Of a stretch of 64,000 nucleotides of DNA, positions 1 to 8,404 are shown piece by piece. A model generated the notes under the pieces. It had not been told where the DNA came from, made no database searches, and saw only the letters and a list, made by a program, of their open reading frames with translations. The DNA is from Escherichia coli (GTDB lineage: Bacteria; Pseudomonadota; Gammaproteobacteria; Enterobacterales; Enterobacteriaceae): NCBI RefSeq assembly GCF_050320075.1, contig NZ_CP190018.1, one strand, 5' to 3'. The position numbers and the translations under genes were made by a program. Within the stretch, counting starts at the first letter, position 1. Every line of letters begins with the position of its first letter.

Positions 1-2
1 AT

Positions 3-155
3 AACGTTAAGGGCGTTGCAGAGGGTTCTAAGGCCATCAGAATCACAACGGACCAACTGGAACTACTCAAAGCACAGTCCGCAGTAGCAGGTTGCTCAAT
101 GATTCAGGTGTTAAGCGCAAAGGTCCATCAATTAGCGGATAGGCTGGGGGTTTAA
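3..155 (+). CDS. 3' end of an unknown ORF running in from upstream of the window (partial, about 50 codons visible)
   Basis: Open frame from position 3 with no stop until TAA at 153-155; that stop overlaps the ATG at 155 of the next ORF (TAATG). Not in the ORF track because it has no start inside the window. Confidence 0.3.
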   Translation, partial: NVKGVAEGSKAIRITTDQLELLKAQSAVAGCSMIQVLSAKVHQLADRLGV

Positions 156-580
156 TGCTATGCACATTTGATTATCATGCGTTTTATCGCCATAGAGGCC
201 ACCTTGTCCGTGAGAATAGCGGAACATGGAAAGATTTAACTCGTAATGCTGAACCCTTCACACACCAGCAATTAAAATCCCGCTTCTCCAGATGGAAGAA
301 TGCACCAGCAGATACTGGTGATTTTGAGATTATCCATACCTTCGATTATGCCTCAGAAGATGACCTTCACGATGCAATTAAGCTGATTGAAGACTTCAAT
401 ACCTCAGAAGATGTGGATGGTGACAAATATAAATCCCGTGGTAACCGCTATAACCGTGATGATATCACTCAGGCCATAAATGCTGGTCAATCTCAGCGAT
501 ACATTACAGAAAAATATGGTATTTCACGGAGACAGTATTTCTACGTTAAATCATTGATTAATAAAGACAATTCAAAATAA
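155..580 (+). CDS. hypothetical protein, 141 aa, with a C-terminal helix-turn-helix-like segment
   Basis: ORF-track ORF; ATG overlaps the upstream stop (TAATG); C-terminal stretch DDITQAINAGQSQRYITEKYGISRRQYFYV resembles a DNA-binding HTH; AT-rich codon usage like the rest of the element. Confidence 0.5.
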   Translation: MLCTFDYHAFYRHRGHLVRENSGTWKDLTRNAEPFTHQQLKSRFSRWKNAPADTGDFEIIHTFDYASEDDLHDAIKLIEDFNTSEDVDGDKYKSRGNRYNRDDITQAINAGQSQRYITEKYGISRRQYFYVKSLINKDNSK

Positions 581-717
581 CCATCTCAGTAACGGTAGAA
601 TGCACTTTACAGGCAGAGTTGCACCTTAATTTGATAAATTACCTTACCAGCCAGTGCAACTCCCTCTGTAACCCGCATGATTACTGGTCTCAGAATGGCT
701 ATTTTAAGAGGTCTGAG

Positions 718-1065
718 ATGTGTTTTGTAGGAGATTTAAAAATGAACAACTTCCCATTACAGATTTTCGTTGATAACGACACCGCTATGATGGTGCAAAG
801 CTTCAGTGATGCAGGTATTAGCATTGATTTTGACAGGCTGTTAAAGCTAATGGCTGATAATGAAGAAAACGTCTCTGACTTTATTCACTCGGTGGAGTTT
901 AACGAGCCTCGAATGATGTTACCAATTACAGACAGTAATATGAAAAGATTGGTTATTGAGCAAACGAACAAATACAGTATTTCCCCAGAGCAATTTTTGA
1001 AAGGTGCTGTGACAATCCTGTACAGCGATAATATTTTGGTTACGGATTCCGTGAGGGTTCACTAA
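718..1065 (+). CDS. hypothetical protein, about 115 aa (alternative start at 742)
   Basis: ORF-track ORF 619..1065 begins at a TTG; a better start is ATG 718 preceded by AAGAGG (706-711), or ATG 742 preceded by GGAG. No recognisable motif. Confidence 0.45.
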   Translation: MCFVGDLKMNNFPLQIFVDNDTAMMVQSFSDAGISIDFDRLLKLMADNEENVSDFIHSVEFNEPRMMLPITDSNMKRLVIEQTNKYSISPEQFLKGAVTILYSDNILVTDSVRVH

Positions 1066-1142
1066 TGGGCTTAATAATTGCTTGGACGTTGCTTGGCTTA
1101 TTTGTTGGTTGCTGGGTAGGCAGCACAGTAAATAGAAATTGA
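1065..1142 (+). CDS. candidate 25-aa hydrophobic micro-protein (MGLIIAWTLLGLFVGCWVGSTVNRN)
   Basis: ATG at 1065-1067 overlaps the TAA stop of the preceding ORF (TAATG); a single predicted transmembrane stretch followed by a polar tail; too short to appear in the ORF track. Confidence 0.3.
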   Translation: MGLIIAWTLLGLFVGCWVGSTVNRN

Positions 1143-1166
1143 TGTTACCAATCTGTTAAAAAGCTG

Positions 1167-1195
1167 TTGACAAATAACCTTAAGCATGAGATGAT
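1167..1195 (+). promoter_or_regulatory. sigma70-like promoter candidate (TTGACA, 17-bp spacer, TGn-GATGAT)
   Basis: Perfect -35 hexamer TTGACA at 1167-1172, 17-bp spacer, TG at 1187-1188 and a weak -10 GATGAT at 1190-1195; followed immediately by a short GAGAG/CTCTC hairpin and a T-run. Confidence 0.35.
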
Positions 1196-1359
1196 GGTAA
1201 TAGGGGAGAGCAACTCTCTCTTATTTTTCTTTCAAAATAATCCGATGGATGGATATTCTGAATTGGAAAGGTGCAATGCTTTTCGTCATGGCCTTTCAGT
1301 TTAGTCTGAGAGGCTATCTCAAAAAGTGCTTAATCATTCATTGAACCCTTTACAGCTTT

Positions 1360-1388
1360 GCCCTAACTCATGATTAGGGCTTTCTTTA
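1360..1388 (+). terminator. intrinsic-terminator-like hairpin (GCCCTAA / TTAGGGC) followed by TTTCTTT
   Basis: Perfect 7-bp inverted repeat at 1360-1366 and 1374-1380 with a 7-nt loop, then a U-rich tract. Confidence 0.4.
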
Positions 1389-1636
1389 AGAGTTTTTAAA
1401 CAGAGCTTTTAAAGAAAGTTTTTCCTGAAACTTCGTTAACGTTAAAGCAAACCTTCAAAGCCCTTCACAGATGAGGATGATTCCATGAATATCCGAATCA
1501 CCTATGTTTAGGGCTTTTTTCAGCTTTTAAAAAGCATACTTGGCAAACGCCTTTTAAGCCTCTTCTAAGTTCGAGGATGTCAGGTGTGCTTTTTAAAAAC
1601 TGAAACATAAATTATCTTAGAAGAGGAAAGGTATTA

Positions 1637-2341
1637 ATGGCTATCCGTGATGAAAATGAAATGATTATTGAAAACAAACCAAGTGCACTTGATATTCACG
1701 AATTAAGTTTGCGTGAATCTTTTGATAGAGCTTGGCGGGAATCACACGAAGTAAATAAAGGTCCATATATTCCACCAGAACCACTCGAGATTCCAAGAGT
1801 TGAAATTGATTTTTCTATGAACGAACGGTGTGAACTTGATTTGAAGTTGAAGCTACAACGCCGATATTTCCAAGCTATTAAAGACTCTCAAGAAGCAATG
1901 AGAAGTGTTTATGAGAAAATTCAGTCCAAGCTTGAAGACGAAATTGACGAAATGGCTATTTTGATGGAGCTTCAAACCAATCCTTATGCTTATTTCTCTC
2001 GACTAGACCGTGACGGTTGGGGGTATGACCCTGTAGAGATTGGTAAAGTGATTGCAGATTTACCAGAAGGTCAAAGGGTTATTCGTACGGAAAGGGCCAT
2101 CAGAGCGCCACATCAACTGTCTCTAATTGTTGCTGATAAATCACAAGCTGAGCTTGAAGAAATTGCCAAAGAGAAACTGATGAAAGCAAGAGAAAATGAG
2201 ATTAATTTGCTGAAATCAAGACTGGCTAAGCTGATTAGTGACCATCAAGCGCTGGCTAAGGAGTACCGTCAAGAGTTGGCACAGATTATCAGCTTCAATG
2301 ATTTTCTGAGTGTTCCACGAGAATTTAGCAAGGCTGTTTGA
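1637..2341 (+). CDS. hypothetical acidic protein, 234 aa
   Basis: Strong RBS (AGAGGAAAGG) 7 nt upstream of the ATG; glutamate- and lysine-rich with an apparently helical C-terminal half; no motif recognised. Confidence 0.6.
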   Translation: MAIRDENEMIIENKPSALDIHELSLRESFDRAWRESHEVNKGPYIPPEPLEIPRVEIDFSMNERCELDLKLKLQRRYFQAIKDSQEAMRSVYEKIQSKLEDEIDEMAILMELQTNPYAYFSRLDRDGWGYDPVEIGKVIADLPEGQRVIRTERAIRAPHQLSLIVADKSQAELEEIAKEKLMKARENEINLLKSRLAKLISDHQALAKEYRQELAQIISFNDFLSVPREFSKAV

Positions 2342-2364
2342 TTATGAATTAAAAGAGGTGATTA

Positions 2365-2583
2365 ATGTATGAAGACCGTTTGGAAACTATCAAGGCAGTT
2401 TGTGAAAAACTTAAAAACCAACCACGTAAACCAAAAACGGTAAAGAGTAAGCATCAGCCTGTCACCTCAAACAGCAAAATAAAGATTCGCAAAATTCCTT
2501 CGTGGTGCATTGACCGTATTCCGGTTGGTTCAAGAATTATTCGTGAAGATGGTGATTATCATTGGGTATCAGTTGTTGGTTAG
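2365..2583 (+). CDS. hypothetical small basic protein, 72 aa
   Basis: RBS AAAGAGGTGA upstream of the ATG; lysine/arginine-rich; followed by an intrinsic terminator. Confidence 0.5.
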   Translation: MYEDRLETIKAVCEKLKNQPRKPKTVKSKHQPVTSNSKIKIRKIPSWCIDRIPVGSRIIREDGDYHWVSVVG

Positions 2584-2598
2584 TTAGTAAAAATCTAC

Positions 2599-2638
2599 GG
2601 GAGAGATTATCGAGTGATATCGGTAGCTCTCCCTTTTT
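2599..2638 (+). terminator. rho-independent terminator
   Basis: GGGAGAG (2599-2605) pairs with CTCTCCC (2627-2633), followed by TTTTT. Confidence 0.55.
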
Positions 2639-2671
2639 CGTATATGAACACTTAAGAGGTGAAAAATATGA

Positions 2672-4804
2672 ATGAGCAAATTCACAGTTGATAGTTTTAT
2701 CGTTGAATTAAGCTTCAATGAAAACATTATTAAGGGCTTGCAAAGAGTTGAAAAGGCAGCTTTGCAGTCAGCACAAAGAATTGAAAAGAACCTAAATAAA
2801 GGTTTCAGGATTAATACAAAGCAGCTTGATAGTAATTTAACGGCTTCTTTAGGGCAGCTTGAAAGGAAGTTTAATAAGGCCTTTGACAAGATTGAACAGA
2901 GAGCAAGAAATACTAAAGCTTTCCAGTTTACCACCAGATTTAATGACACTGTTAATCCTCCAAAACAACCGAGACAGCCACGAATTAGCGGCAACAGAGC
3001 AATCACAGCAGCTTACTCAGCGAATATGAGCAAGCTAAAAGGCTTTGACCCTATTTTGCAGAAATACATCAAATCTCAGTTTTACGGGCTATCTGCTAAA
3101 GCCGGTTCAATGGATTCTTCAAAATTCAATGAGAAGTTAGCTCAGTTAAACGCTTCAGTCAGAGAAGCAATTGCTAAAGCCAGAGGTCATACATCCACCA
3201 GCATTAATGGTGACAGAGCAGCTAATAGTCTTGATAACCTGTCTTCAGCAGCAGTTAAAACAGCAGGTGCATTTATCTCAATGCAGGCTGTATTAGCCAG
3301 TTATCAGAAGATTATGGAAATTGGTTTACAGCGTGCAAGTGCTGAACGTTCAATTGATTTCGTATTTGATAAAGATGCAGGTCAAGTAAAAGAGTTCACA
3401 AAGTCATTAGCTCAAACAACGGGTTTAGATATCGCTGAACTGCAATCACAGTTTGCTGGTTTTGGTGCTTCAGCTAAAGAGTCTATGGGCATTCAAGGTT
3501 CTGAAGAACTTTTTAAAAATATGATTGGCTATGCTCGTCTGATGGGGAGAAGTGAAGAAGAGATTAAGCGAGCACTGACAGCATTATCACAGATGGCTGG
3601 TAAGGGTCAGGTTATGGCTGAAGAGCTTAAGGGGCAATTAGCTGAAGCTGTTCCTGGTATGGTTCAGGTATTCGCTAAAGCAACCGGAAGGAATGAACAA
3701 GAGCTATTTGATGCCATGAAGAAGGGGGCTTTAAAATCTGCCGATACTCTTCAGAAGGTCACTCAGGAACTGAATAAACAAATCACCGCTAAAGGTGGCT
3801 GGAAAGCTATTTCAGAAAGTACACAGGCACAACTAGGGAACCTGAAAAACTCTTGGAATACCACGCTTGATAGTATCTTCAGAGGTTCTGAAGATGGTCT
3901 GCAAGATTTTACAAGAAGCTTAACAACGCTTTTAAACGCTCTTGGTGGAAGTGGTAAAAGTCTTGGTGAATCTCTTGGTAGTCTCATGACTTCTATGTCA
4001 CATGGTGTCGATTCATTGACTGATATCAGCTACAGGGTAAGAGCATTCTTCGATGAGGTGACATTAGCTTACCGTTCACTAAATGACACTCAGAAAAAAA
4101 TTGTTGATGGTTTATCTGATGGGTTAATTGATGGTTTGAAGATGCTTGCCGTAGCTGTTACTGCTCAAAAGGCTGCAAATGTAGCTGGAGGCTTGTTAAA
4201 CCTTGCAAATGCTGTTACTTCATTCGGTGATGCTGTTAATAAAGCTAAAGCTGGCAAGGCTGGTTCTTCAGGTGGTGCGCTAAATAAAGTTGGTAGAGTT
4301 GTTCTTTATGCTGAGTTGGTGAACTTTGCTCTTGATAATTTAAACCCTGAAGCGGCTAAGAATCCGAACTTACACCAATCAGGTATTGGAACAGAGACAA
4401 ACTTCAACCCTGAATACAAAGGCGATTCATCTAAACCAAACCAAATTAATGATGGATGGGCTAAGATTGGTAGTTCTATCGCTGACTGGTTTAATGGTGC
4501 GGCTAATAAAATTGCTAACTTCCAAGACCCGATGAATAACTTTGTTAATAACACACAATCAACTCCACCAGCTATCACAGGTGACATGGTTAATAGCAAT
4601 GCTCAACTTGCTATGGCTGTATCAGAGTTAGGAAGAAAGGTAGACGCTTTAACAGTAGAAGCTAAGAAGCCTTTATCAGTTAATATCAAAGGTGAAGCAA
4701 TTGTTAGACCGGATGAACCAGCTTTCTTTACTTTCAATCAATCAGCTAATGACCAGTTCACGCAGGATATGCTCTTAAGTTCAAGCTATCCAGAGGAAGA
4801 ATGA
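2672..4804 (+). CDS. phage tail tape-measure-domain protein (TMP-like), 710 aa
   Basis: RBS AAGAGGTG upstream; helical, alanine/glycine/lysine-rich; the segment ALTALSQMAGKGQVMAEELKGQLAEAVPGMVQVFAKATGRNEQELFDAMKKGALKSADTLQKV matches, from memory, the conserved core of phage tape-measure proteins. Confidence 0.6.
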   Translation: MSKFTVDSFIVELSFNENIIKGLQRVEKAALQSAQRIEKNLNKGFRINTKQLDSNLTASLGQLERKFNKAFDKIEQRARNTKAFQFTTRFNDTVNPPKQPRQPRISGNRAITAAYSANMSKLKGFDPILQKYIKSQFYGLSAKAGSMDSSKFNEKLAQLNASVREAIAKARGHTSTSINGDRAANSLDNLSSAAVKTAGAFISMQAVLASYQKIMEIGLQRASAERSIDFVFDKDAGQVKEFTKSLAQTTGLDIAELQSQFAGFGASAKESMGIQGSEELFKNMIGYARLMGRSEEEIKRALTALSQMAGKGQVMAEELKGQLAEAVPGMVQVFAKATGRNEQELFDAMKKGALKSADTLQKVTQELNKQITAKGGWKAISESTQAQLGNLKNSWNTTLDSIFRGSEDGLQDFTRSLTTLLNALGGSGKSLGESLGSLMTSMSHGVDSLTDISYRVRAFFDEVTLAYRSLNDTQKKIVDGLSDGLIDGLKMLAVAVTAQKAANVAGGLLNLANAVTSFGDAVNKAKAGKAGSSGGALNKVGRVVLYAELVNFALDNLNPEAAKNPNLHQSGIGTETNFNPEYKGDSSKPNQINDGWAKIGSSIADWFNGAANKIANFQDPMNNFVNNTQSTPPAITGDMVNSNAQLAMAVSELGRKVDALTVEAKKPLSVNIKGEAIVRPDEPAFFTFNQSANDQFTQDMLLSSSYPEEE

Positions 4805-4967
4805 TTTCTTATATATCCGTGTGCTACGTGATTTCTTCTGAACAGATATACCCACTAAAAATTATTTTTTACGTAGCTCACGCTTAACAGAGAAAATACT
4901 TATATATCAAAGGCTTGGTTAAAAATGATTAAAATACACTAAGCCTTTGAAATCAAAGGAGAATTTA

Positions 4968-5741
4968 ATGATTTACTCTAATCAGATTCGTTACAGTGGT
5001 AAAGATGGCGTTTACTTTCATCTACAAGGCCAGCCAGATAATTTCTTGTCACTATCAGCTACTGAGAACATGGAATTTGACAGCCCTATGATGGTTACCA
5101 CTCAAAATATGCAATCAGGGCAGACTGTCACAGATAATGTAATGCGTTCACCCAGAACTATTTCAATCAGTGGTGTGGTTGTAGTTGGTGAATCCGGTAG
5201 TATCCTTATCTCAAGAGATAATAAGCTGGTGGAAAACTTCATAGACACTCTTGAAAACTGGCGTGACCAGAAGCAAATTATCTCAGTTGTCTGTAAAGAT
5301 GGTATTAAGATTGACGACTCAATTATTACAAACTTTAAAGCCTCTAAAGATGTTGGTATTGCCAATGGTCTTAGAATCCAATTAACTTTTCAGGAAATTA
5401 ACTTTAAAGCTATTGTGGGTCAGACTGATATCTCGGCTGCGACCGGAAGGACTTCTACCACAAGTGATGGTGGTGCTACCAGTAAAAAGAATACAGGGAA
5501 CACTACGACAAGCTTAGGTAACGGTATGTTGATGTGTCAGGAGCTATATAATCGCTCTACGAGTGAACTTACTAATGAGCAACTTCAAGCCCGTATCAAT
5601 TGTGGTAAAAATGTCAGAGTTAAGAACGGAAAAAGCACCTTCTCAGATGCCGCTAATGAGCAAGCTTCAAAGGTGCTTAATAATGCTGGTACAGGTAGTA
5701 CTTTGAAGAAGTATTCTGTTAATCCTAACAAGCGATACTGA
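4968..5741 (+). CDS. hypothetical protein, 257 aa; possibly a distal-tail-like protein, judged only by position after the tape-measure gene
   Basis: ORF-track ORF 4947..5741 begins at a TTG; preferred start is ATG 4968 preceded by AAGGAG. The N-terminal half looks beta-strand-rich and the C-terminal half is Ser/Thr/Gly/Asn-rich. Confidence 0.5.
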
Positions 5742-5755
5742 CGATAGAATCTCAA

Positions 5756-7279
5756 CTATATGATAACCTCATCAACATCTATTAAACCCCTCTCAGTGAC
5801 TTCAGAAAGCGACTGTATAGCCTCTGTAACGTTGTCTGAGGGGTTTTCTGTTATTGGTAAGGTGATTGCTTTACCGTTGTGAAAAGTTACTTTACAGCGA
5901 CGTTTAGCAGTATTTAAAACGACCTCTTTAACAGCACTTTTGATTATCAGTTGTGCTTCAATCCTTCCCGCCTTTGTAGTCAAGTCACAATCAGACAAAC
6001 AACCCACATCAATAGATTTAAGGCGTTGTGTCTCCTTCTCGATATCCGCATCAACTTGTGATAGCTCATTCTTTAGTTGTCTTAGTTTGCTGGTAATAGC
6101 GGACAAGTCTTCAATTTCAAGTGATAGCTGTACCAGCTTTTCAATATTGCTTGAGATGTGTTCACGGTGTAGCTTCAGTGTGTCTATGGTATTCGTCATA
6201 TCGCTATCAAATCGGTCAAGACGAGATAGCAGGGCAAGCAATGTACCATCGGTTTGCTTACGTGAAAGTCCTTTAGCACTACAACGGTTTTCATTACGAA
6301 GAGGACAACGATAAATCCCGTTTCTTGTATCGCTAAAGCCTGTGATAATCAAAGCATGACCACATTCAGAACAACGGATAACACCTTTGAAAAGATTCAC
6401 AGCCATTGGCTTATCTGAAGCAGGTTTTCTACCGTAACGAGCATATGATAGTTGTTGAACTTTGTAGAATGTTGTTTCATCTATAATTGCAGGATAATAA
6501 CCAGATATCTCCTCACAGCCTTTAGGTGTGAAGTAACCAATTACAGAGCGATTCTTCAAAAGGTCTTGCACTGAGGTTTGACCAAACTTACCTGCTTTGT
6601 ACTGGTTAAGCGTCTGGTGACCTTCAGCATTAAGAGTTCTGACAATCTCCCAGATAGACTTACCCTCTAACCGTAGCTGAAAGCACCTCTTCACAGTCTC
6701 CACTTTCTCAGGTATCACAGAGAAGCTTTTACGGTCATCATTAAGCTTAAGCCATGCAGGACAACGCCTAGAAATCTTGATACCAGCTTTAGCAGCTTCT
6801 TTCTTTGCATCCCATGCAGCTTGTATACGCTCAGCCTTACGTAATGATTCCTCATGCGCCCTTTGCATTATCAAAATGCTTTTAATCAGAGCTAACGGGT
6901 CTTTAAGAGATTCCCTTGTGTAATGTTCACCATCGGACAGGGTGACTACATCTACACCAGAGCGAAGAATGTTTCTGAGTAGCTCACTTGCTTGGTCTAC
7001 GTCCTGACGTGAGAGACGGTCTAAACTCTCGATTAGTAGTGTATCACCAGCTTTAACAAGCCCTTTCTCGATAGCGGTTAAAAAGTCACCTAAGCCACCT
7101 TTCAAGTGCTTACCAGTGAACCCGCTAACGCCTAAATCACGAAAAGTAAGGGATTCATCCAGATAGTACTCAGGATGAGCCTTAAGCCAATCAGTGACCA
7201 TCTTAGCCTGTCGTCTTAATGAGTCGCCTCTGGATTGCTTCTCAGATGAAAACCGGATGTAACTGATTGCACGTTTCAT
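5756..7279 (-). CDS. large serine recombinase (phage-type serine integrase), 507 aa
   Basis: N-terminal resolvase-type catalytic domain (ISYIRFSSEKQSRGDSL...LLIESLDRLSRQ), a central recombinase region, a cysteine-rich zinc-ribbon-like motif (CSECGHALIITG...YRCPLRNENRCSAKG) and a coiled-coil C-terminus; convergent with the cargo genes and adjacent to the host junction. Confidence 0.85.
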   Translation of the reverse strand: MKRAISYIRFSSEKQSRGDSLRRQAKMVTDWLKAHPEYYLDESLTFRDLGVSGFTGKHLKGGLGDFLTAIEKGLVKAGDTLLIESLDRLSRQDVDQASELLRNILRSGVDVVTLSDGEHYTRESLKDPLALIKSILIMQRAHEESLRKAERIQAAWDAKKEAAKAGIKISRRCPAWLKLNDDRKSFSVIPEKVETVKRCFQLRLEGKSIWEIVRTLNAEGHQTLNQYKAGKFGQTSVQDLLKNRSVIGYFTPKGCEEISGYYPAIIDETTFYKVQQLSYARYGRKPASDKPMAVNLFKGVIRCSECGHALIITGFSDTRNGIYRCPLRNENRCSAKGLSRKQTDGTLLALLSRLDRFDSDMTNTIDTLKLHREHISSNIEKLVQLSLEIEDLSAITSKLRQLKNELSQVDADIEKETQRLKSIDVGCLSDCDLTTKAGRIEAQLIIKSAVKEVVLNTAKRRCKVTFHNGKAITLPITENPSDNVTEAIQSLSEVTERGLIDVDEVII

Positions 7280-7346
7280 TGTTCACCTCACCAATAGCAG
7301 TTGGGCTTGTACCAACCCCTAGATTGTATCGCTTTAGATGGTGTAT

Positions 7347-7841
7347 TTAAACGTGTCTAATAAAAATCACCCGATTAACGCCGCGCTGATGTAAACCGCG
7401 ATTAAGCGTTTGTTCCTCTTCCCCTTTGGCGAAAAACTGTGGATGGCGGACTTCCACACCATAATTAAATTCGCCGGGAAGGGAATCGAGAAAATGCCAA
7501 AGCGCAGGCAGATCCCGTGGGCCAAATGTGGCAGGCAGTTGCAGCCAGTATTGCCCAATGCGCGGCGCTAACGGTGACATGCGGGTCAAAAATTCAGTCA
7601 CTAAATCATCGCAATGCCGTAATGCTGCCTGATGCGAAATGGTCGCCGGAAACTTAAAACAGAAGCGAAAATTATCTGTGGTCTGCTCACGCCAGCGCAG
7701 GACAACCTCGGATTTCGGCAGGGCGTAAAGCGTGGTGTTGCCCTCCACACAGTTAAAGTGGCGGGCATACTCTTCAAGGCTGGTGATCCCCAACCGCACC
7801 CATTTAGGATGCGACCATTGCGGCAGACCGATGTAAATCAT
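7347..7841 (-). pseudogene. yecE: yecE (DUF72 family), 5' portion only: reading frame interrupted by the insertion
   Basis: N-terminus [29 protein letters not shown] matches recalled YecE; the frame stops after 164 codons (intact YecE is about 272 aa from memory) exactly where GC-rich host sequence changes to the AT-rich element. Confidence 0.7.
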
Positions 7842-8404
7842 AATGCGTTGAGGATCTCTTCCACACTGCGCACACGGGCGATGCGTGGGTAGATATGGTT
7901 GATGCTGTTATTGTGCTGCTCGGCGCTGGCGGCGCTGCAGGCGTCTTCGGCAATCACCAGATTAAAACCGAGTTCCCAGGCATTGCGGGCGGTGGATTCA
8001 ACACCGATATTGGTCGAGATCCCACATAATACTATTGTATCGATACCCCGGCGGCGTAATTGCAACTCCAGATCTGTACCGTAAAACGCCCCCCACTGAC
8101 GTTTGATGATTTCGATATCACTGTCAGTTGCACCTAATGCAGCAGGATGTTGCCACCAGTTTTCGGGCAACACTTTAGCGGGGGAAGGGGCATCAACCGG
8201 CTGTTTTAATGCTTCGGCGTAATCGGCAGACCAGCCAACGCGCACCAGAAACACGGGCTGACCGCTGGCGCGAAATTTCACCGCCAGCTTCCCGGCGCGA
8301 TTAACCACCTCATCGGCAGTATGTGGACCTCCGGCAAAAGGTAAGATGCCTTCTTGTAAATCAATCACCACCAGCGCGGTGGTTTTAGCATTAAGTTCAA
8401 GCAT
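7838..8404 (-). CDS. yecD: isochorismatase-family hydrolase YecD
   Basis: [23 protein letters not shown]...; ORF-track ORF trimmed to the internal Met that gives a 188-aa product. Confidence 0.85.

Follow-up and report, generated by a model that had tools for sequence, protein, structure and literature searches.

The window analyzed here, a 64,000-nucleotide stretch of Escherichia coli DNA, contains an island of ~12 kb and 39% GC that splits yecE and encodes a large serine recombinase, a replication-initiator-like protein, a Dam methylase, and Felix-O1-like tail genes. Within the island lies a gap at 1143–1636. Directly downstream is an operon whose genes encode, in order, proteins of 234 and 72 aa, a tape measure protein, and a Felix O1 ORF68 homologue. 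Copies of two tail-assembly genes of Felix O1 are present in the island, and their interaction ends are conserved. A first-pass annotation made from the sequence had treated the gap as non-coding DNA beginning at 1143. Non-coding it is, but its left edge is set by an unannotated 25-codon ORF (1065–1142), which is open in other islands and has diverged in sequence (mean identity 64%). No partition genes were found in the island, and in the literature searched we found no description of Ounavirinae satellites or of a yecE island with a tape measure gene.

The proteins encoded around the gap are largely without recognizable relatives. The 96-, 141-, 107-, 234-, and 72-aa proteins gave no informative family in Pfam, NCBIfam, or PHROGs; for some of them the search was extended to PDB sequences, to protein homologues, or to phages by tblastn. 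The sole hints in this set came from the Omega repressor, matched weakly at E 0.16, and from a fold resembling TraY (E 0.02–0.4). The upstream proteins had no significant match in Pfam and no match whatever in NCBIfam and PHROGs, the HTH-like ORF1, proposed earlier as a binding partner for the gap, had no significant family match, and none of the neighboring small proteins matched Q, N, or another antiterminator family. At best, the 107-aa protein resembles a DNA-binding protein with a tandem ribbon-helix-helix-like fold; it does not look like an RNA binder.

DNA similar to the gap is present in 477 of 5,426 complete E. coli genomes. The 234-aa gene is always directly downstream, whether the copy comes from an E. 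coli genome, an IMG/VR contig, or a metagenome contig, and none of the copies found lies away from it. One metagenome match (L096) was dropped as a 20-mer occurring by chance in an unrelated contig. In a scan of the genome collection, relatives of the 234-aa protein outside E. coli were restricted to Escherichia sp. and E. albertii. Over 103 distinct copies the layout of the gap is constant: a promoter (P2), hairpins H1, H2, and H3, one to three terminator-like hairpins, and a long hairpin, H6. The features of the window copy are as follows.

1065–1142, plus strand: hydrophobic ORF of 25 codons, MGLIIAWTLLGLFVGCWVGSTVNRN, unannotated, its start overlapping the stop codon of the 107-aa gene
1143–1169, plus strand: three direct repeats TGTTR, 11 bp apart, operator-like, with the architecture of an ArcA-P site
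1167–1195, plus strand: P2, a sigma-70 promoter (TTGACA, 17-nt spacer, TG-n-GATGAT), from a promoter scan and 103 copies
1203–1221, plus strand: H1, hairpin GGGGAGAG/CTCTCTCT followed by TTATTTTTCTTT, at the predicted RNA 5' end
1244–1254, plus strand: (GATG)n short repeat in a variable linker, two copies in the window and 0 to 5 elsewhere
1266–1285, plus strand: H2, invariant hairpin GAAAGGU-GCAAU-GCUUUUC, 100% identical in 19 copies (alignment A4)
1288–1317, plus strand: H3, 11-bp hairpin with a variable loop and a covarying stem (helix 3)
1318–1359, plus strand: ss1, conserved and mostly unpaired, 88% identity
1360–1387, plus strand: T1, terminator-like GCCCUAA/UUAGGGC then UUUCUUU, flagged by scan in two alleles
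1380–1423, plus strand: H4, A/U-rich 12+4 bp hairpin then UUUUU (inverted pair I3, helix 6), 97% identity
1419–1456, plus strand: ss2, unpaired block UUUUUCCUGAAACUUCGUUAACGUUA..AAACCUUC, 98% identical
1457–1520, plus strand: T2, terminator-like AAAGCCCU...AGGGCUUU then U6 (helix 7), arms 94–98% identical
1518–1605, plus strand: H6, long hairpin of 20–30 bp in the 5' UTR (inverted pair I1), present in every allele
1559–1569, plus strand: anti-Shine-Dalgarno CCUCUUCUAAG in the H6 apical loop (pair I6, 11/11 complementary)
1616–1639, plus strand: Shine-Dalgarno region CUUAGAAGAGG with the start codon (AUG, 1637) of the 234-aa gene, first of the operon

All the features that the first-pass annotation had listed are present at the positions it gave; it had also raised covariation in homologous copies and conservation relative to the flanking genes as points of comparison. 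The flanking genes have a mean nucleotide identity of 65–68% and the gap blocks 94–100% (96% for the promoter block); by this comparison the gap is the best-conserved part of the island and is not spacer DNA. Base pairing is preserved in 97.5% of cells for the 84 proposed pairs, versus 36–62% when the partner is slid by 1–3 columns, and 14 of the 84 changed on both sides. Among the imperfect pairs, G·U outnumber A·C by 240 to 10, and this excess, together with the compensatory changes, fits a plus-strand RNA. Folding z-scores range from –5.5 to –6.8. Rfam held nothing relevant for window positions 1–8000 at E≤10, and three other alleles searched at E≤1 gave sub-threshold matches only (microRNA-precursor-like matches on the long hairpin and the rhtB sRNA, E 0.088); a tRNA/tmRNA scan found none.

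The same data bear on two explanations that dispense with a regulatory RNA. Promoter and stem-loop cassettes of T4-type phages have been proposed as homology blocks for module swapping, and the gap could serve gene exchange between islands in this way, with the usual roles of a promoter and of terminators and without being any special switch. Flanking-gene alleles only ~26% identical at the protein level are joined by the same gap, whose sub-modules (H1 type, H3 type, type I or II center, H6 allele, and optional inserts) occur in many combinations. Recombination between islands could indeed account for part of the conservation, given how visibly the modules are shuffled. We nonetheless regard it as unlikely that the gap is only such a cassette, since recombination alone leaves unexplained the compensatory changes, the G·U bias, and the rebuilt complementarity between a hairpin loop and the Shine-Dalgarno sequence described below, and the order of promoter and then terminators is unlike a simple operon end followed by the start of the next operon.

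A function at the DNA level, as a replication origin, packaging site, or partition site of the island, would suit an A/T-rich, very highly conserved segment of a mobile element with many inverted and direct repeats, and a replication or partition locus was among the options first raised. We find it hard to sustain and rate its probability as very low. The would-be DNA mismatches are nearly all plus-strand G·T (by the same 240 to 10), as would suit RNA; iterons, expected as several direct repeats of about 17–22 bp beside an initiator or partition gene, are absent, the direct repeats being hairpin arms or two-copy matches; and the replication-initiator-like gene lies elsewhere in the island, ~2.4 kb upstream of the gap, this gene and a repeat-rich non-coding region of 1.1 kb being located 2–5 kb to the left. 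No GenBank phage shares the DNA: BLAST against 50,697 phage records at E≤10 returned chance matches only, and the k-mers shared by the gap and Felix O1 are within the range of shuffled sequences. A 14-mer of H2 that also occurs in Felix O1 falls inside annotated gene coordinates there and has no hairpin context.

The near-consensus promoter proposed earlier is confirmed, with TTGACA at 1167–1172, a 17-nt spacer, TG at 1187–1188, and GATGAT at 1190–1195. Scoring 10/12, P2 is the best promoter-like site in window positions 1–3000, and the window copy has no other strong match; its transcription start is predicted at ~1202. The –35, TG, and –10 are fixed across the 103 copies and the spacer is variable; most other copies have a stronger –10 than the GATGAT of the window (CATAAT; 11/12 in the copy L006). 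Promoter-like sites in the region are no more frequent than in shuffled sequence (6 found, 7.5 expected), so the case that the region goes beyond chance comes from the comparison with other copies and not from the single sequence alone. In the two alleles scanned, no plus-strand promoter site turned up between P2 and H6.

P2 is preceded by three phased repeats, TGTTA at 1143–1147, TGTTA at 1154–1158, and TGTTG at 1165–1169, the third of which overlaps the –35. The triple repeat is unique in the 64-kb window with one mismatch tolerated (0.04 expected), and a single second set was found in the 38-kb locus, on the other island promoter, P1. Among copies the TGTT cores are conserved and the bases between them vary. 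An ArcA-P site is defined by at least two TGTTA direct repeats, usually three, spaced 11 bp centre-to-centre and overlapping a promoter (PMC4173790); in number, 11-bp spacing, and promoter overlap, the P2 repeats conform to this sequence definition, and the second repeat (CTGTTAAAAA) fits the consensus ATGTTAAAAA at 9/10 positions. On this basis the three repeats are a putative protein-binding element. The earlier suggestion of protein-binding sites is favored at the promoter and not supported for a replication or partition site. Since P1 and P2 carry the same repeats, one DNA-binding regulator probably controls both, the candidates being host ArcA-P and an island ribbon-helix-helix protein.

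Downstream of P2, H1 (helix 1) has eight pairs, three of which changed on both sides, with 99% of cells paired. A hairpin with a T-run had been noted here, and both are present at 1203–1221; the U-rich run belongs to the window allele and is absent from others, so H1 is not a conserved terminator. Between H1 and H2, the linker accommodates 0–5 GATG repeats plus optional 28-nt inserts among copies. The motif of this hairpin insert, TGAGG...CCGAA, was considered as a window-wide repeat and rejected, because in the 64 kb the hairpin-insert sequence is carried by the leader copy alone. Compensated variants of the H3 stem are numerous; examples are GGCC/GGCU, GACC/GGUC, and GGCCUAUUUAG/CUAGAUAGGCU.

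None of the 19 copies in which H2 is invariant had been found by using the H2 sequence. The hairpin includes a Shine-Dalgarno-like AAGG five bases upstream of an AUG, both invariant, which raises the idea that the gap encodes one or more small proteins; the window copy has ORFs of 31–45 codons, among them a 31-aa ORF at 1249–1344. We consider this highly improbable. The H2 AUG is the only conserved one, and the ORF that it opens runs from 5 to 58 codons in the 103 copies, with differing frames and stops; the start at 1249 is not conserved; no conserved small ORF was found in the gap; and substitutions track base-pairing rather than codons.

The central part of the gap is built from terminator-like hairpins. 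T1 corresponds in DNA to GCCCTAA-N7-TTAGGGC at 1360–1380 followed by TTTCTTT, as first reported; its variants pair through G·U, and in the divergent homologues L064 and L093 the stem is GCCCUC/GAGGGC, with both arms changed in compensation. In H4, a G·U pair has become G-C in L008 and L012, and a U-A pair C-G in L064. The recurring TTTTAAA blocks to which attention had been drawn turn out to be the arms of two A/U-rich hairpins, at 1380–1418 and 1518–1605. The T2 loop of the window allele holds a 30-nt hairpin insert (1473–1502). Hairpins of the T2 type, ending in a U-rich tail with U4–6 after the stem, occur in at least 97 of the 103 copies. About a quarter of the copies are of type II: they have unrelated sequence in place of ss2 and no T1, and their single terminator is the T2 design rebuilt from a different stem sequence. 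Terminator-like hairpins therefore occur in every module type, one to three per copy, and T1 and T2 have the G+C-rich stem-loop and following U-tract by which an intrinsic terminator is recognized in sequence. RNAs ending at T1, H4, or T2 are predicted to be ~186, ~222, and ~319 nt long, respectively, with a median of 299 nt from predicted start to T2 end among copies.

The motif TTAGGGCTTT does occur twice, at 1374–1383 and 1508–1517 (direct-repeat family D3), and is the 3' arm of two terminator-like hairpins. The T1 3' arm (AGGGCUUU) could pair with the T2 5' arm (AAAGCCCU), and both are invariant; type II copies are without T1. A four-segment attenuator, GCCCUAA / UUAGGGCUUU / AAAGCCCUU / UUAGGGCUUU, was considered on this pattern and rejected: such a switch is not general, since in about a quarter of copies the T1-to-T2 segment is missing and there is one terminator. 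Pairing of the H3 3' arm with a terminator 5' arm as an antiterminator is partly possible by eye and was dropped for want of covariation. An attenuator in the leader-peptide sense, one form of the attenuator-controlled leader initially envisaged, finds no conserved ORF and faces the same missing segment in type II copies. A leader of riboswitch type, in which H2, H3, and ss1 would sense a ligand or protein and the terminator would act as expression platform, matches the layout, with a promoter, invariant nucleotides flanked by covarying stems, a terminator, and a sequestered Shine-Dalgarno. We think a riboswitch quite improbable: no Rfam family matched, the H1–H2 linker with its GATG repeats and 28-nt inserts leaves no compact fold there, and no conserved antiterminator structure or alternative pairing with the terminator was found across copies.

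The terminated transcript of ~190–320 nt could instead be a trans-acting small RNA pairing with mRNAs of the island or of a helper phage, the structure around H6 and the Shine-Dalgarno then being a separate feature of the downstream UTR. The RNA would have a strong conserved promoter of its own, a 5' hairpin, and intrinsic terminators, and two of its unpaired blocks are near-invariant (ss2, 98%; H2 loop, 100%), so that by sequence it combines own promoter, own terminator, and a conserved unpaired seed. Moreover, ss2 carries an anti-Shine-Dalgarno-like CCUUC (CCUCC in other alleles), and there is a precedent in SviR (10.1101/2022.04.08.487710). Against this, duplexes of ss1, ss2, and H2 with 167 start regions of Felix O1, one candidate helper genome, were no better than those of shuffled queries, and among 24 island start regions only ss1 beat the shuffles, at an unannotated 63-codon reverse-strand ORF; neither search yielded a credible target. 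In addition, ss2 is swapped for unrelated sequence in a quarter of copies, the element is never apart from the 234-aa gene, and the U-tails are short (4–6 U) compared with a typical Hfq-dependent small RNA. A small RNA of this kind is a minority possibility in our judgment, and one compatible with the leader model developed below.

The last element before the operon is H6. Its stem (helix 8) comprises 19 pairs, eight of which changed on both sides, with 98.9% of cells paired, and across alleles it has 14–30 pairs, at least 17 in most. It thereby offers the ~20 bp or more of near-continuous double-stranded RNA expected of an RNase III substrate, for which it is a candidate. The H6 loop can form a duplex of 9–13 bp with the Shine-Dalgarno region of the 234-aa gene (p≤0.05 in 98% of 101 copies; median z –3.96), and the complementarity is retained in at least five alleles of different sequence. 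A conserved complementary segment and covariation, as expected of a Shine-Dalgarno-sequestering operator, are thus both found at the sequence level. Since H6 covaries as RNA and the window copy offers no strong promoter match other than P2, the RNA that contains H6 should arise by terminator read-through.

A unifying model based on these data is that 1143–1636 constitutes a regulated promoter and a ~435-nt 5' leader of the tail-gene operon that blocks both elongation and translation, a reading that we hold with about even confidence. The small RNA and leader options contained in the first-pass annotation both gain from the conserved promoter, covarying helices, G·U bias, terminator-like hairpins, and Shine-Dalgarno complementarity. 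In the proposed sequence of events, a regulator would bind the TGTTR repeats at P2 (and P1) and control both promoters. Transcripts would begin at ~1202 with H1 as a protective 5' hairpin and then fold into H2 and H3. Next would come between one and three intrinsic terminators, namely T1, H4 (with its U-run), and T2, at which the bulk of transcripts would end, giving the RNA of ~190–320 nt. In those that read through, the H6 apical loop would pair with the Shine-Dalgarno of the first gene and block its translation, so that the operon would be held off at two levels. The signal for read-through would most plausibly be helper-phage infection or an antitermination factor of the island or phage, and the ribosome-binding site would become accessible once H6 is melted or cut by RNase III. 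Most likely, then, the leader holds the Felix-O1-like tail genes off until a signal arrives.

In sequence, H2 and ss2 vary less than a purely structural leader would require, a hint that they may do something more, for instance as the binding site of a protein or as a trans-acting seed. More speculatively, and we regard this too as a minority possibility, the leader may act as the switch in a family of E. coli islands, not described before, that parasitize or interfere with virulent Felix-O1-like phages, in which H2, ss2, or both would dock a phage or island factor that makes RNA polymerase terminator-resistant, and/or the ~190–320 nt RNA would act in trans on helper transcripts. In either case, infection, and possibly the ArcA redox state of the cell, would govern when the decoy tape measure and baseplate proteins are made. 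How satellite-like or defense islands are silenced and switched on under virulent phage is little understood outside the Vibrio PLE system. The promoter and leader, being the best-conserved part of the island, offer a natural handle on its control logic, and the operator repeats, the three terminator positions, the invariant hairpin, and the pairing of hairpin loop and Shine-Dalgarno are directly testable. The leader also defines an RNA family absent from Rfam. Were it merely an ordinary promoter-and-terminator cassette, its interest would be modest and local.

Several known systems resemble parts of this design. At the promoter, the closest is the ArcA-P operator of icdA P1, which likewise has three TGTTA-type repeats 11 bp apart centre-to-centre and overlapping promoter elements (PMC4173790). 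The P2 operator differs in its third repeat, TGTTG, and in the 10-bp spacing between the second and third repeats of some alleles, and an island-encoded ribbon-helix-helix protein could use these ArcA-type repeats.

At the other end of the leader, the lambda N leader and the T7 R sites are RNase III-processed 5' leaders that mask a ribosome-binding site. The gap shares with them a long, near-perfect double-stranded hairpin just upstream of a sequestered Shine-Dalgarno; unlike in those leaders, it is the H6 apical loop and not the stem that pairs with the Shine-Dalgarno, in a pseudoknot-like arrangement, and cleavage is only a candidate step.

In the immunity leader of P4, which abounds in hairpins and in complementary motifs that recur, transcripts from a constitutive promoter end prematurely; its CI RNA belongs to the C4 antisense RNA family (Rfam RF01695). 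The gap is similar as a satellite-type leader with premature ends (predicted here), hairpins, and repeated complementary motifs. It is dissimilar in having no C4 or other Rfam match at E≤10 in window positions 1–8000, and its repeated motif simply forms the 3' arm in each of two terminators; roughly one copy in four has one terminator only.

SviR is an RNA of ~210 nt conserved in all PLEs, with its own promoter and intrinsic terminator; it targets satellite and phage transcripts, and its promoter is induced by infection (bioRxiv 10.1101/2022.04.08.487710). Like SviR, the predicted RNA of the gap (~200–300 nt) has its own promoter and intrinsic terminator and is the most conserved non-coding part of a satellite-like island, and, as in the Vibrio cholerae PLE, the island carries a large serine recombinase. 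The differences are that there is no homology, that the leader RNA immediately precedes an operon, in line with it, and runs on into its UTR, that no credible leader target was found in the start regions searched, and that P2 looks like a host sigma-70 promoter with ArcA-type repeats.

Finally, the lambdoid late leader consists of the PR' promoter, the 6S RNA, the tR' terminator, and Q antitermination, and includes the Stx-phage small RNA StxS; only modified polymerase carries PR' transcripts past the intrinsic terminator, which lies a few hundred nucleotides on, and the short RNA may have its own role. The present island is without a Q-like gene or family match among its neighboring proteins, and its gap is without similarity to any phage at the DNA or covariance-model level and has up to three serial terminators, a Shine-Dalgarno-sequestering hairpin, and operator repeats on the promoter. 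What it has in common with the lambdoid late module is a strong sigma-70 promoter ahead of late or structural genes, with terminator-like hairpins a few hundred nucleotides downstream.

The non-coding stretch at 1143-1636 (hereafter the gap), directly upstream of the 234-aa gene, is most likely a leader with built-in termination, one that would serve as a two-level off-switch for a Felix-O1-like tail operon. Gap-like DNA is present in 477 of 5,426 complete E. coli genomes, and its position within the island family is identical in every copy examined. The comparison set has 103 distinct copies, drawn from genomes of E. coli, of Escherichia sp. and of E. albertii, from IMG/VR contigs and from a metagenome scan. 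Blocks of the gap keep a mean nucleotide identity of 94-100% whereas the flanking genes keep 65-68%, and the 107-aa and 234-aa neighbour proteins go down to ~26% identity between alleles. Block means are 96% for the promoter, 97% for the hairpin H4, 98% for the unpaired segment ss2, 94-98% for the arms of the terminator-like hairpin T2 and 100% for the hairpin H2, the last computed from copies found by routes other than the H2 20-mer, since metagenome copies were fetched with that 20-mer and are identical in H2 by construction. The first-pass annotation placed the start of non-coding DNA correctly at 1143, because 1065-1142 is filled by an unannotated hydrophobic ORF of 25 codons (MGLIIAWTLLGLFVGCWVGSTVNRN), whose start overlaps the 107-aa gene's stop codon and which stays open, with divergent sequence, in other islands; its product may be a small membrane protein.

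Anatomy of the proposed leader (window positions, plus strand)
~1202, +: predicted transcription start
1203-1221: H1, 5' hairpin
1222-1265: variable linker with a (GATG)n repeat; optional 28-nt hairpin insert in other alleles
1266-1285: H2, invariant
1288-1317: H3, stem covarying, loop variable
1318-1359: ss1, mostly unpaired
1360-1387: T1, terminator-like hairpin
1380-1423: H4 and U5, A/U-rich hairpin
1419-1456: ss2, unpaired, 98% identical
1457-1520: T2, terminator-like hairpin; 30-nt loop insert in the window allele
1518-1605: H6, long hairpin
1616-1626: Shine-Dalgarno region
1637: AUG of the 234-aa gene

The elements listed in the first-pass annotation are all present: the promoter, here P2 (TTGACA 1167-1172, 17-nt spacer, TG 1187-1188, GATGAT 1190-1195), the hairpin followed by a T-run (1203-1221), and the GCCCTAA/TTAGGGC hairpin (1360-1380) followed by TTTCTTT. 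The repeated motif TTAGGGCTTT does occur at 1374 and 1508, where it forms the 3' arm and U-tract of T1 and of T2, and the TTTTAAA blocks are arms of two more hairpins, 1380-1418 and 1518-1605.

Covariation was examined in a 19-sequence alignment for eight helices (84 base pairs). Standard pairs fill 97.5% of pair cells; sliding the 3' partners by 1-3 columns lowers this to 36-62%. Substitutions on both sides are seen in 14 pairs, of which H6 has eight, H1 three, H3 two and H4 one, and none of 500 shuffles reached the observed covariation score. The larger copy set contains many further compensated H3 stems, and the divergent homologues L064 and L093 have GCCCUC/GAGGGC in T1 and a C-G pair replacing U-A in H4. 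The window RNA folds with z-scores of -5.5 to -6.8 relative to shuffled sequence; a search of Rfam gave no family match. G·U pairs outnumber A·C pairs by 240 to 10, which indicates that selection acts on a plus-strand RNA, collinear with promoter and genes; the ratio does not agree with a DNA cruciform, nor with an RNA from the minus strand. Among the functions first suggested, an RNA or leader thus gains from covariation and strand bias, and a replication or partition locus loses: the G·U bias argues against an origin, packaging or partition site, as do the lack of iterons and of any DNA shared with phages. A small-protein reading was also rejected, as the sole conserved AUG, within H2, starts ORFs that lie in different frames and range from 5 to 58 codons, and the region is therefore non-coding.

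T1, H4, ss2 and T2 are all present in about three quarters of the copies. In the remaining type II copies (about one quarter, including E. albertii) they are replaced by a single hairpin of different sequence built to the same plan, AGCCCU...AGGGCU and then a U-run. At least 97 of the 103 copies carry a T2-type hairpin with a U-rich tail; the median distance from the predicted start is 299 nt for its end and 406 nt for the AUG. Modules of the gap are clearly shuffled between copies, as a recombination cassette would be, but shuffling leaves the covariation unexplained. A riboswitch-like sensor is weakened by the tolerance of the linker, whose GATG tetranucleotide repeat (1244-1254) ranges from 0 to 5 copies among islands, and by the lack of an alternative pairing. 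Hairpin inserts of 27-30 nt (TGAGG, stem-loop, CCGAA) occur at three leader positions, independently present or absent with 0-3 per copy: window 1473-1502, after the -10 in L003, L008, L010 and L014, and before H2 in L003, L010, L011 and L018. Within the 64-kb window, the leader copy of the insert sequence is the only one.

The second level of the proposed switch would be translational. H6 is found in every allele, with a stem of 14-30 bp (at least 17 bp in most), and between its apical loop and the Shine-Dalgarno region there is complementarity of 9-13 bp. The window allele pairs CCUCUUCUAAG with CUUAGAAGAGG (11/11), and other alleles pair CUUCUAAGUGU with ACACUUAGAGG or UUCACCUC with GAGGUGAA, so that this long-range interaction covaries between alleles. 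Compared with shuffled loops, the complementarity reaches p<=0.05 in 98% of 101 copies (median z -3.96). Such pairing would hide the ribosome-binding site. By analogy, a duplex as long as H6 could well be an RNase III substrate too.

No strong promoter match other than P2 turned up in the window copy. The spacer varies across copies, but TTGACA at the -35, the TG and the -10 stay fixed, as expected for a functional sigma-70 promoter. For its -10 the window copy has GATGAT, weaker than the CATAAT of most copies; L006, an allele of the majority type, scores 11/12 plus TG. Three TGTTR repeats (1143-1147, 1154-1158 and 1165-1169), spaced by exactly 11 bp, adjoin P2 upstream and overlap its -35; even if one mismatch is tolerated, the 64 kb window has no second triple repeat of this kind (0.04 expected). 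The only other triple repeat in the 38 kb locus (L001 29069-29095) lies at a second near-consensus promoter (TTGACA-17-TATGAT, L001 29069-29105), ~170-200 bp left of window position 1, where repeats at the same 11-bp spacing span the -35, spacer and -10, and ATGTTAAATAAATGTTA is close to the ArcA consensus. This promoter precedes an operon of 96-, 141- and 107-aa genes. ArcA-P binding sites are defined by three TGTTA repeats at a centre-to-centre spacing of 11 bp (PMC4173790). The P2 repeats have that architecture; alternatively, they could serve a protein of the island. The 107-aa protein (gene 742-1065, just upstream of the leader) has a fairly confident model (pLDDT 79) with strand-helix-helix-helix-strand-helix-helix topology, and with two strand-helix-helix-type units; its best fold matches, all weak, are ~110-residue F-plasmid relaxosome chains (presumably TraY, which is a tandem ribbon-helix-helix protein), together with DndE and single-chain Arc. 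It is a possible DNA-binding regulator. For the 96-aa protein, a faint match to the Omega repressor came up.

In the two alleles scanned, no plus-strand promoter site was found between P2 and H6. Because H6 is selected as RNA, transcripts bearing it should start at P2 and cross the terminators, which makes the region a leader with built-in termination. The TGTTR operator would add control of initiation. T1, H4 or T2 would stop most transcripts from P2, as well as those reading through from the upstream operon, giving predicted RNAs of about 186, 222 or 319 nt in the window allele, and transcripts passing the terminators would carry a masked Shine-Dalgarno sequence. Read-through might be triggered by a helper- or island-encoded antitermination factor recognising the invariant H2, although a search for an antiterminator homologue found none, or by a simple burst of transcription. 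The terminated RNA itself could also act in trans as a small RNA, as SviR of the Vibrio PLE satellite does; this would be compatible with the leader model, and the invariance of H2 and ss2 exceeds what structure alone would demand, but type II copies lack ss2, and a search of translation-start regions of Felix O1 and the island turned up no credible target.

The leader belongs to an island of ~12.2 kb (39% GC; L001 24403-36635) that splits yecE (DUF72) and whose right-hand portion is window 1 to ~7340. The window itself comes from the E. coli chromosome and matches strain YZLc1-3 at 100% identity. From left to right it carries variable cargo, a Dam-type methylase, a 322-aa protein like lambda O-type replication initiators, several small genes, the gap, the 234-aa and 72-aa genes, a tape measure protein (710 aa) with a 264-aa protein, and a large serine recombinase. 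Felix O1 ORF68, encoded immediately after that phage's own tape measure gene, is 70% identical to the 264-aa protein, and the island tape measure protein, only 25% identical overall to its Felix O1 counterpart, retains the N-terminal ~25 residues and the C-terminal LLSSSYPEEE. The island therefore looks like a satellite or tail-interference island directed at Felix-O1-like phages (Felixounaviruses). The phage collection contains no match to the 234-aa protein, and the Felix O1 tail chaperones resemble neither this protein nor the 72-aa one. Several unrelated strains have the tape measure gene split by differing ISs (IS2, IS1203, IS100; L004 12459-13687, L020 12446-13659 and match H53), which suggests repeated inactivation. 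The leftmost cargo (left ends of L001, L002, L003 and L020) is a 306-aa hypothetical protein, an AP2/HNH endonuclease or a small serine invertase, so this end looks like a variable slot for accessory genes; an HNH gene also occurs in the early operon of some islands. Between cargo gene and methylase, 1.1 kb of non-coding DNA (L001 25411-26520) with many CTATATA and TACAG repeats and palindromes is a better candidate than the gap for an origin or early control region. The metagenome contig L022 (ERZ506742 NODE-633, 11,233 bp) overlaps itself by 55 nt at its ends and lacks yecE sequence; it is a circular assembly of an island relative with a different large serine recombinase and an invertase, consistent with an excised or episomal form.

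We found no description of the island in the searched literature and its family appears undescribed; the island may correspond to SpLE2, a small integrative element of O157:H7 Sakai. The building blocks of the leader are all of known kinds (a sigma-70 promoter with operator, intrinsic leader terminators and a Shine-Dalgarno-sequestering hairpin), and the leader RNA is a member of no described family. Stacked terminators occur in it together with a pseudoknot-like pairing between hairpin loop and Shine-Dalgarno sequence, in an apparently undescribed island family.
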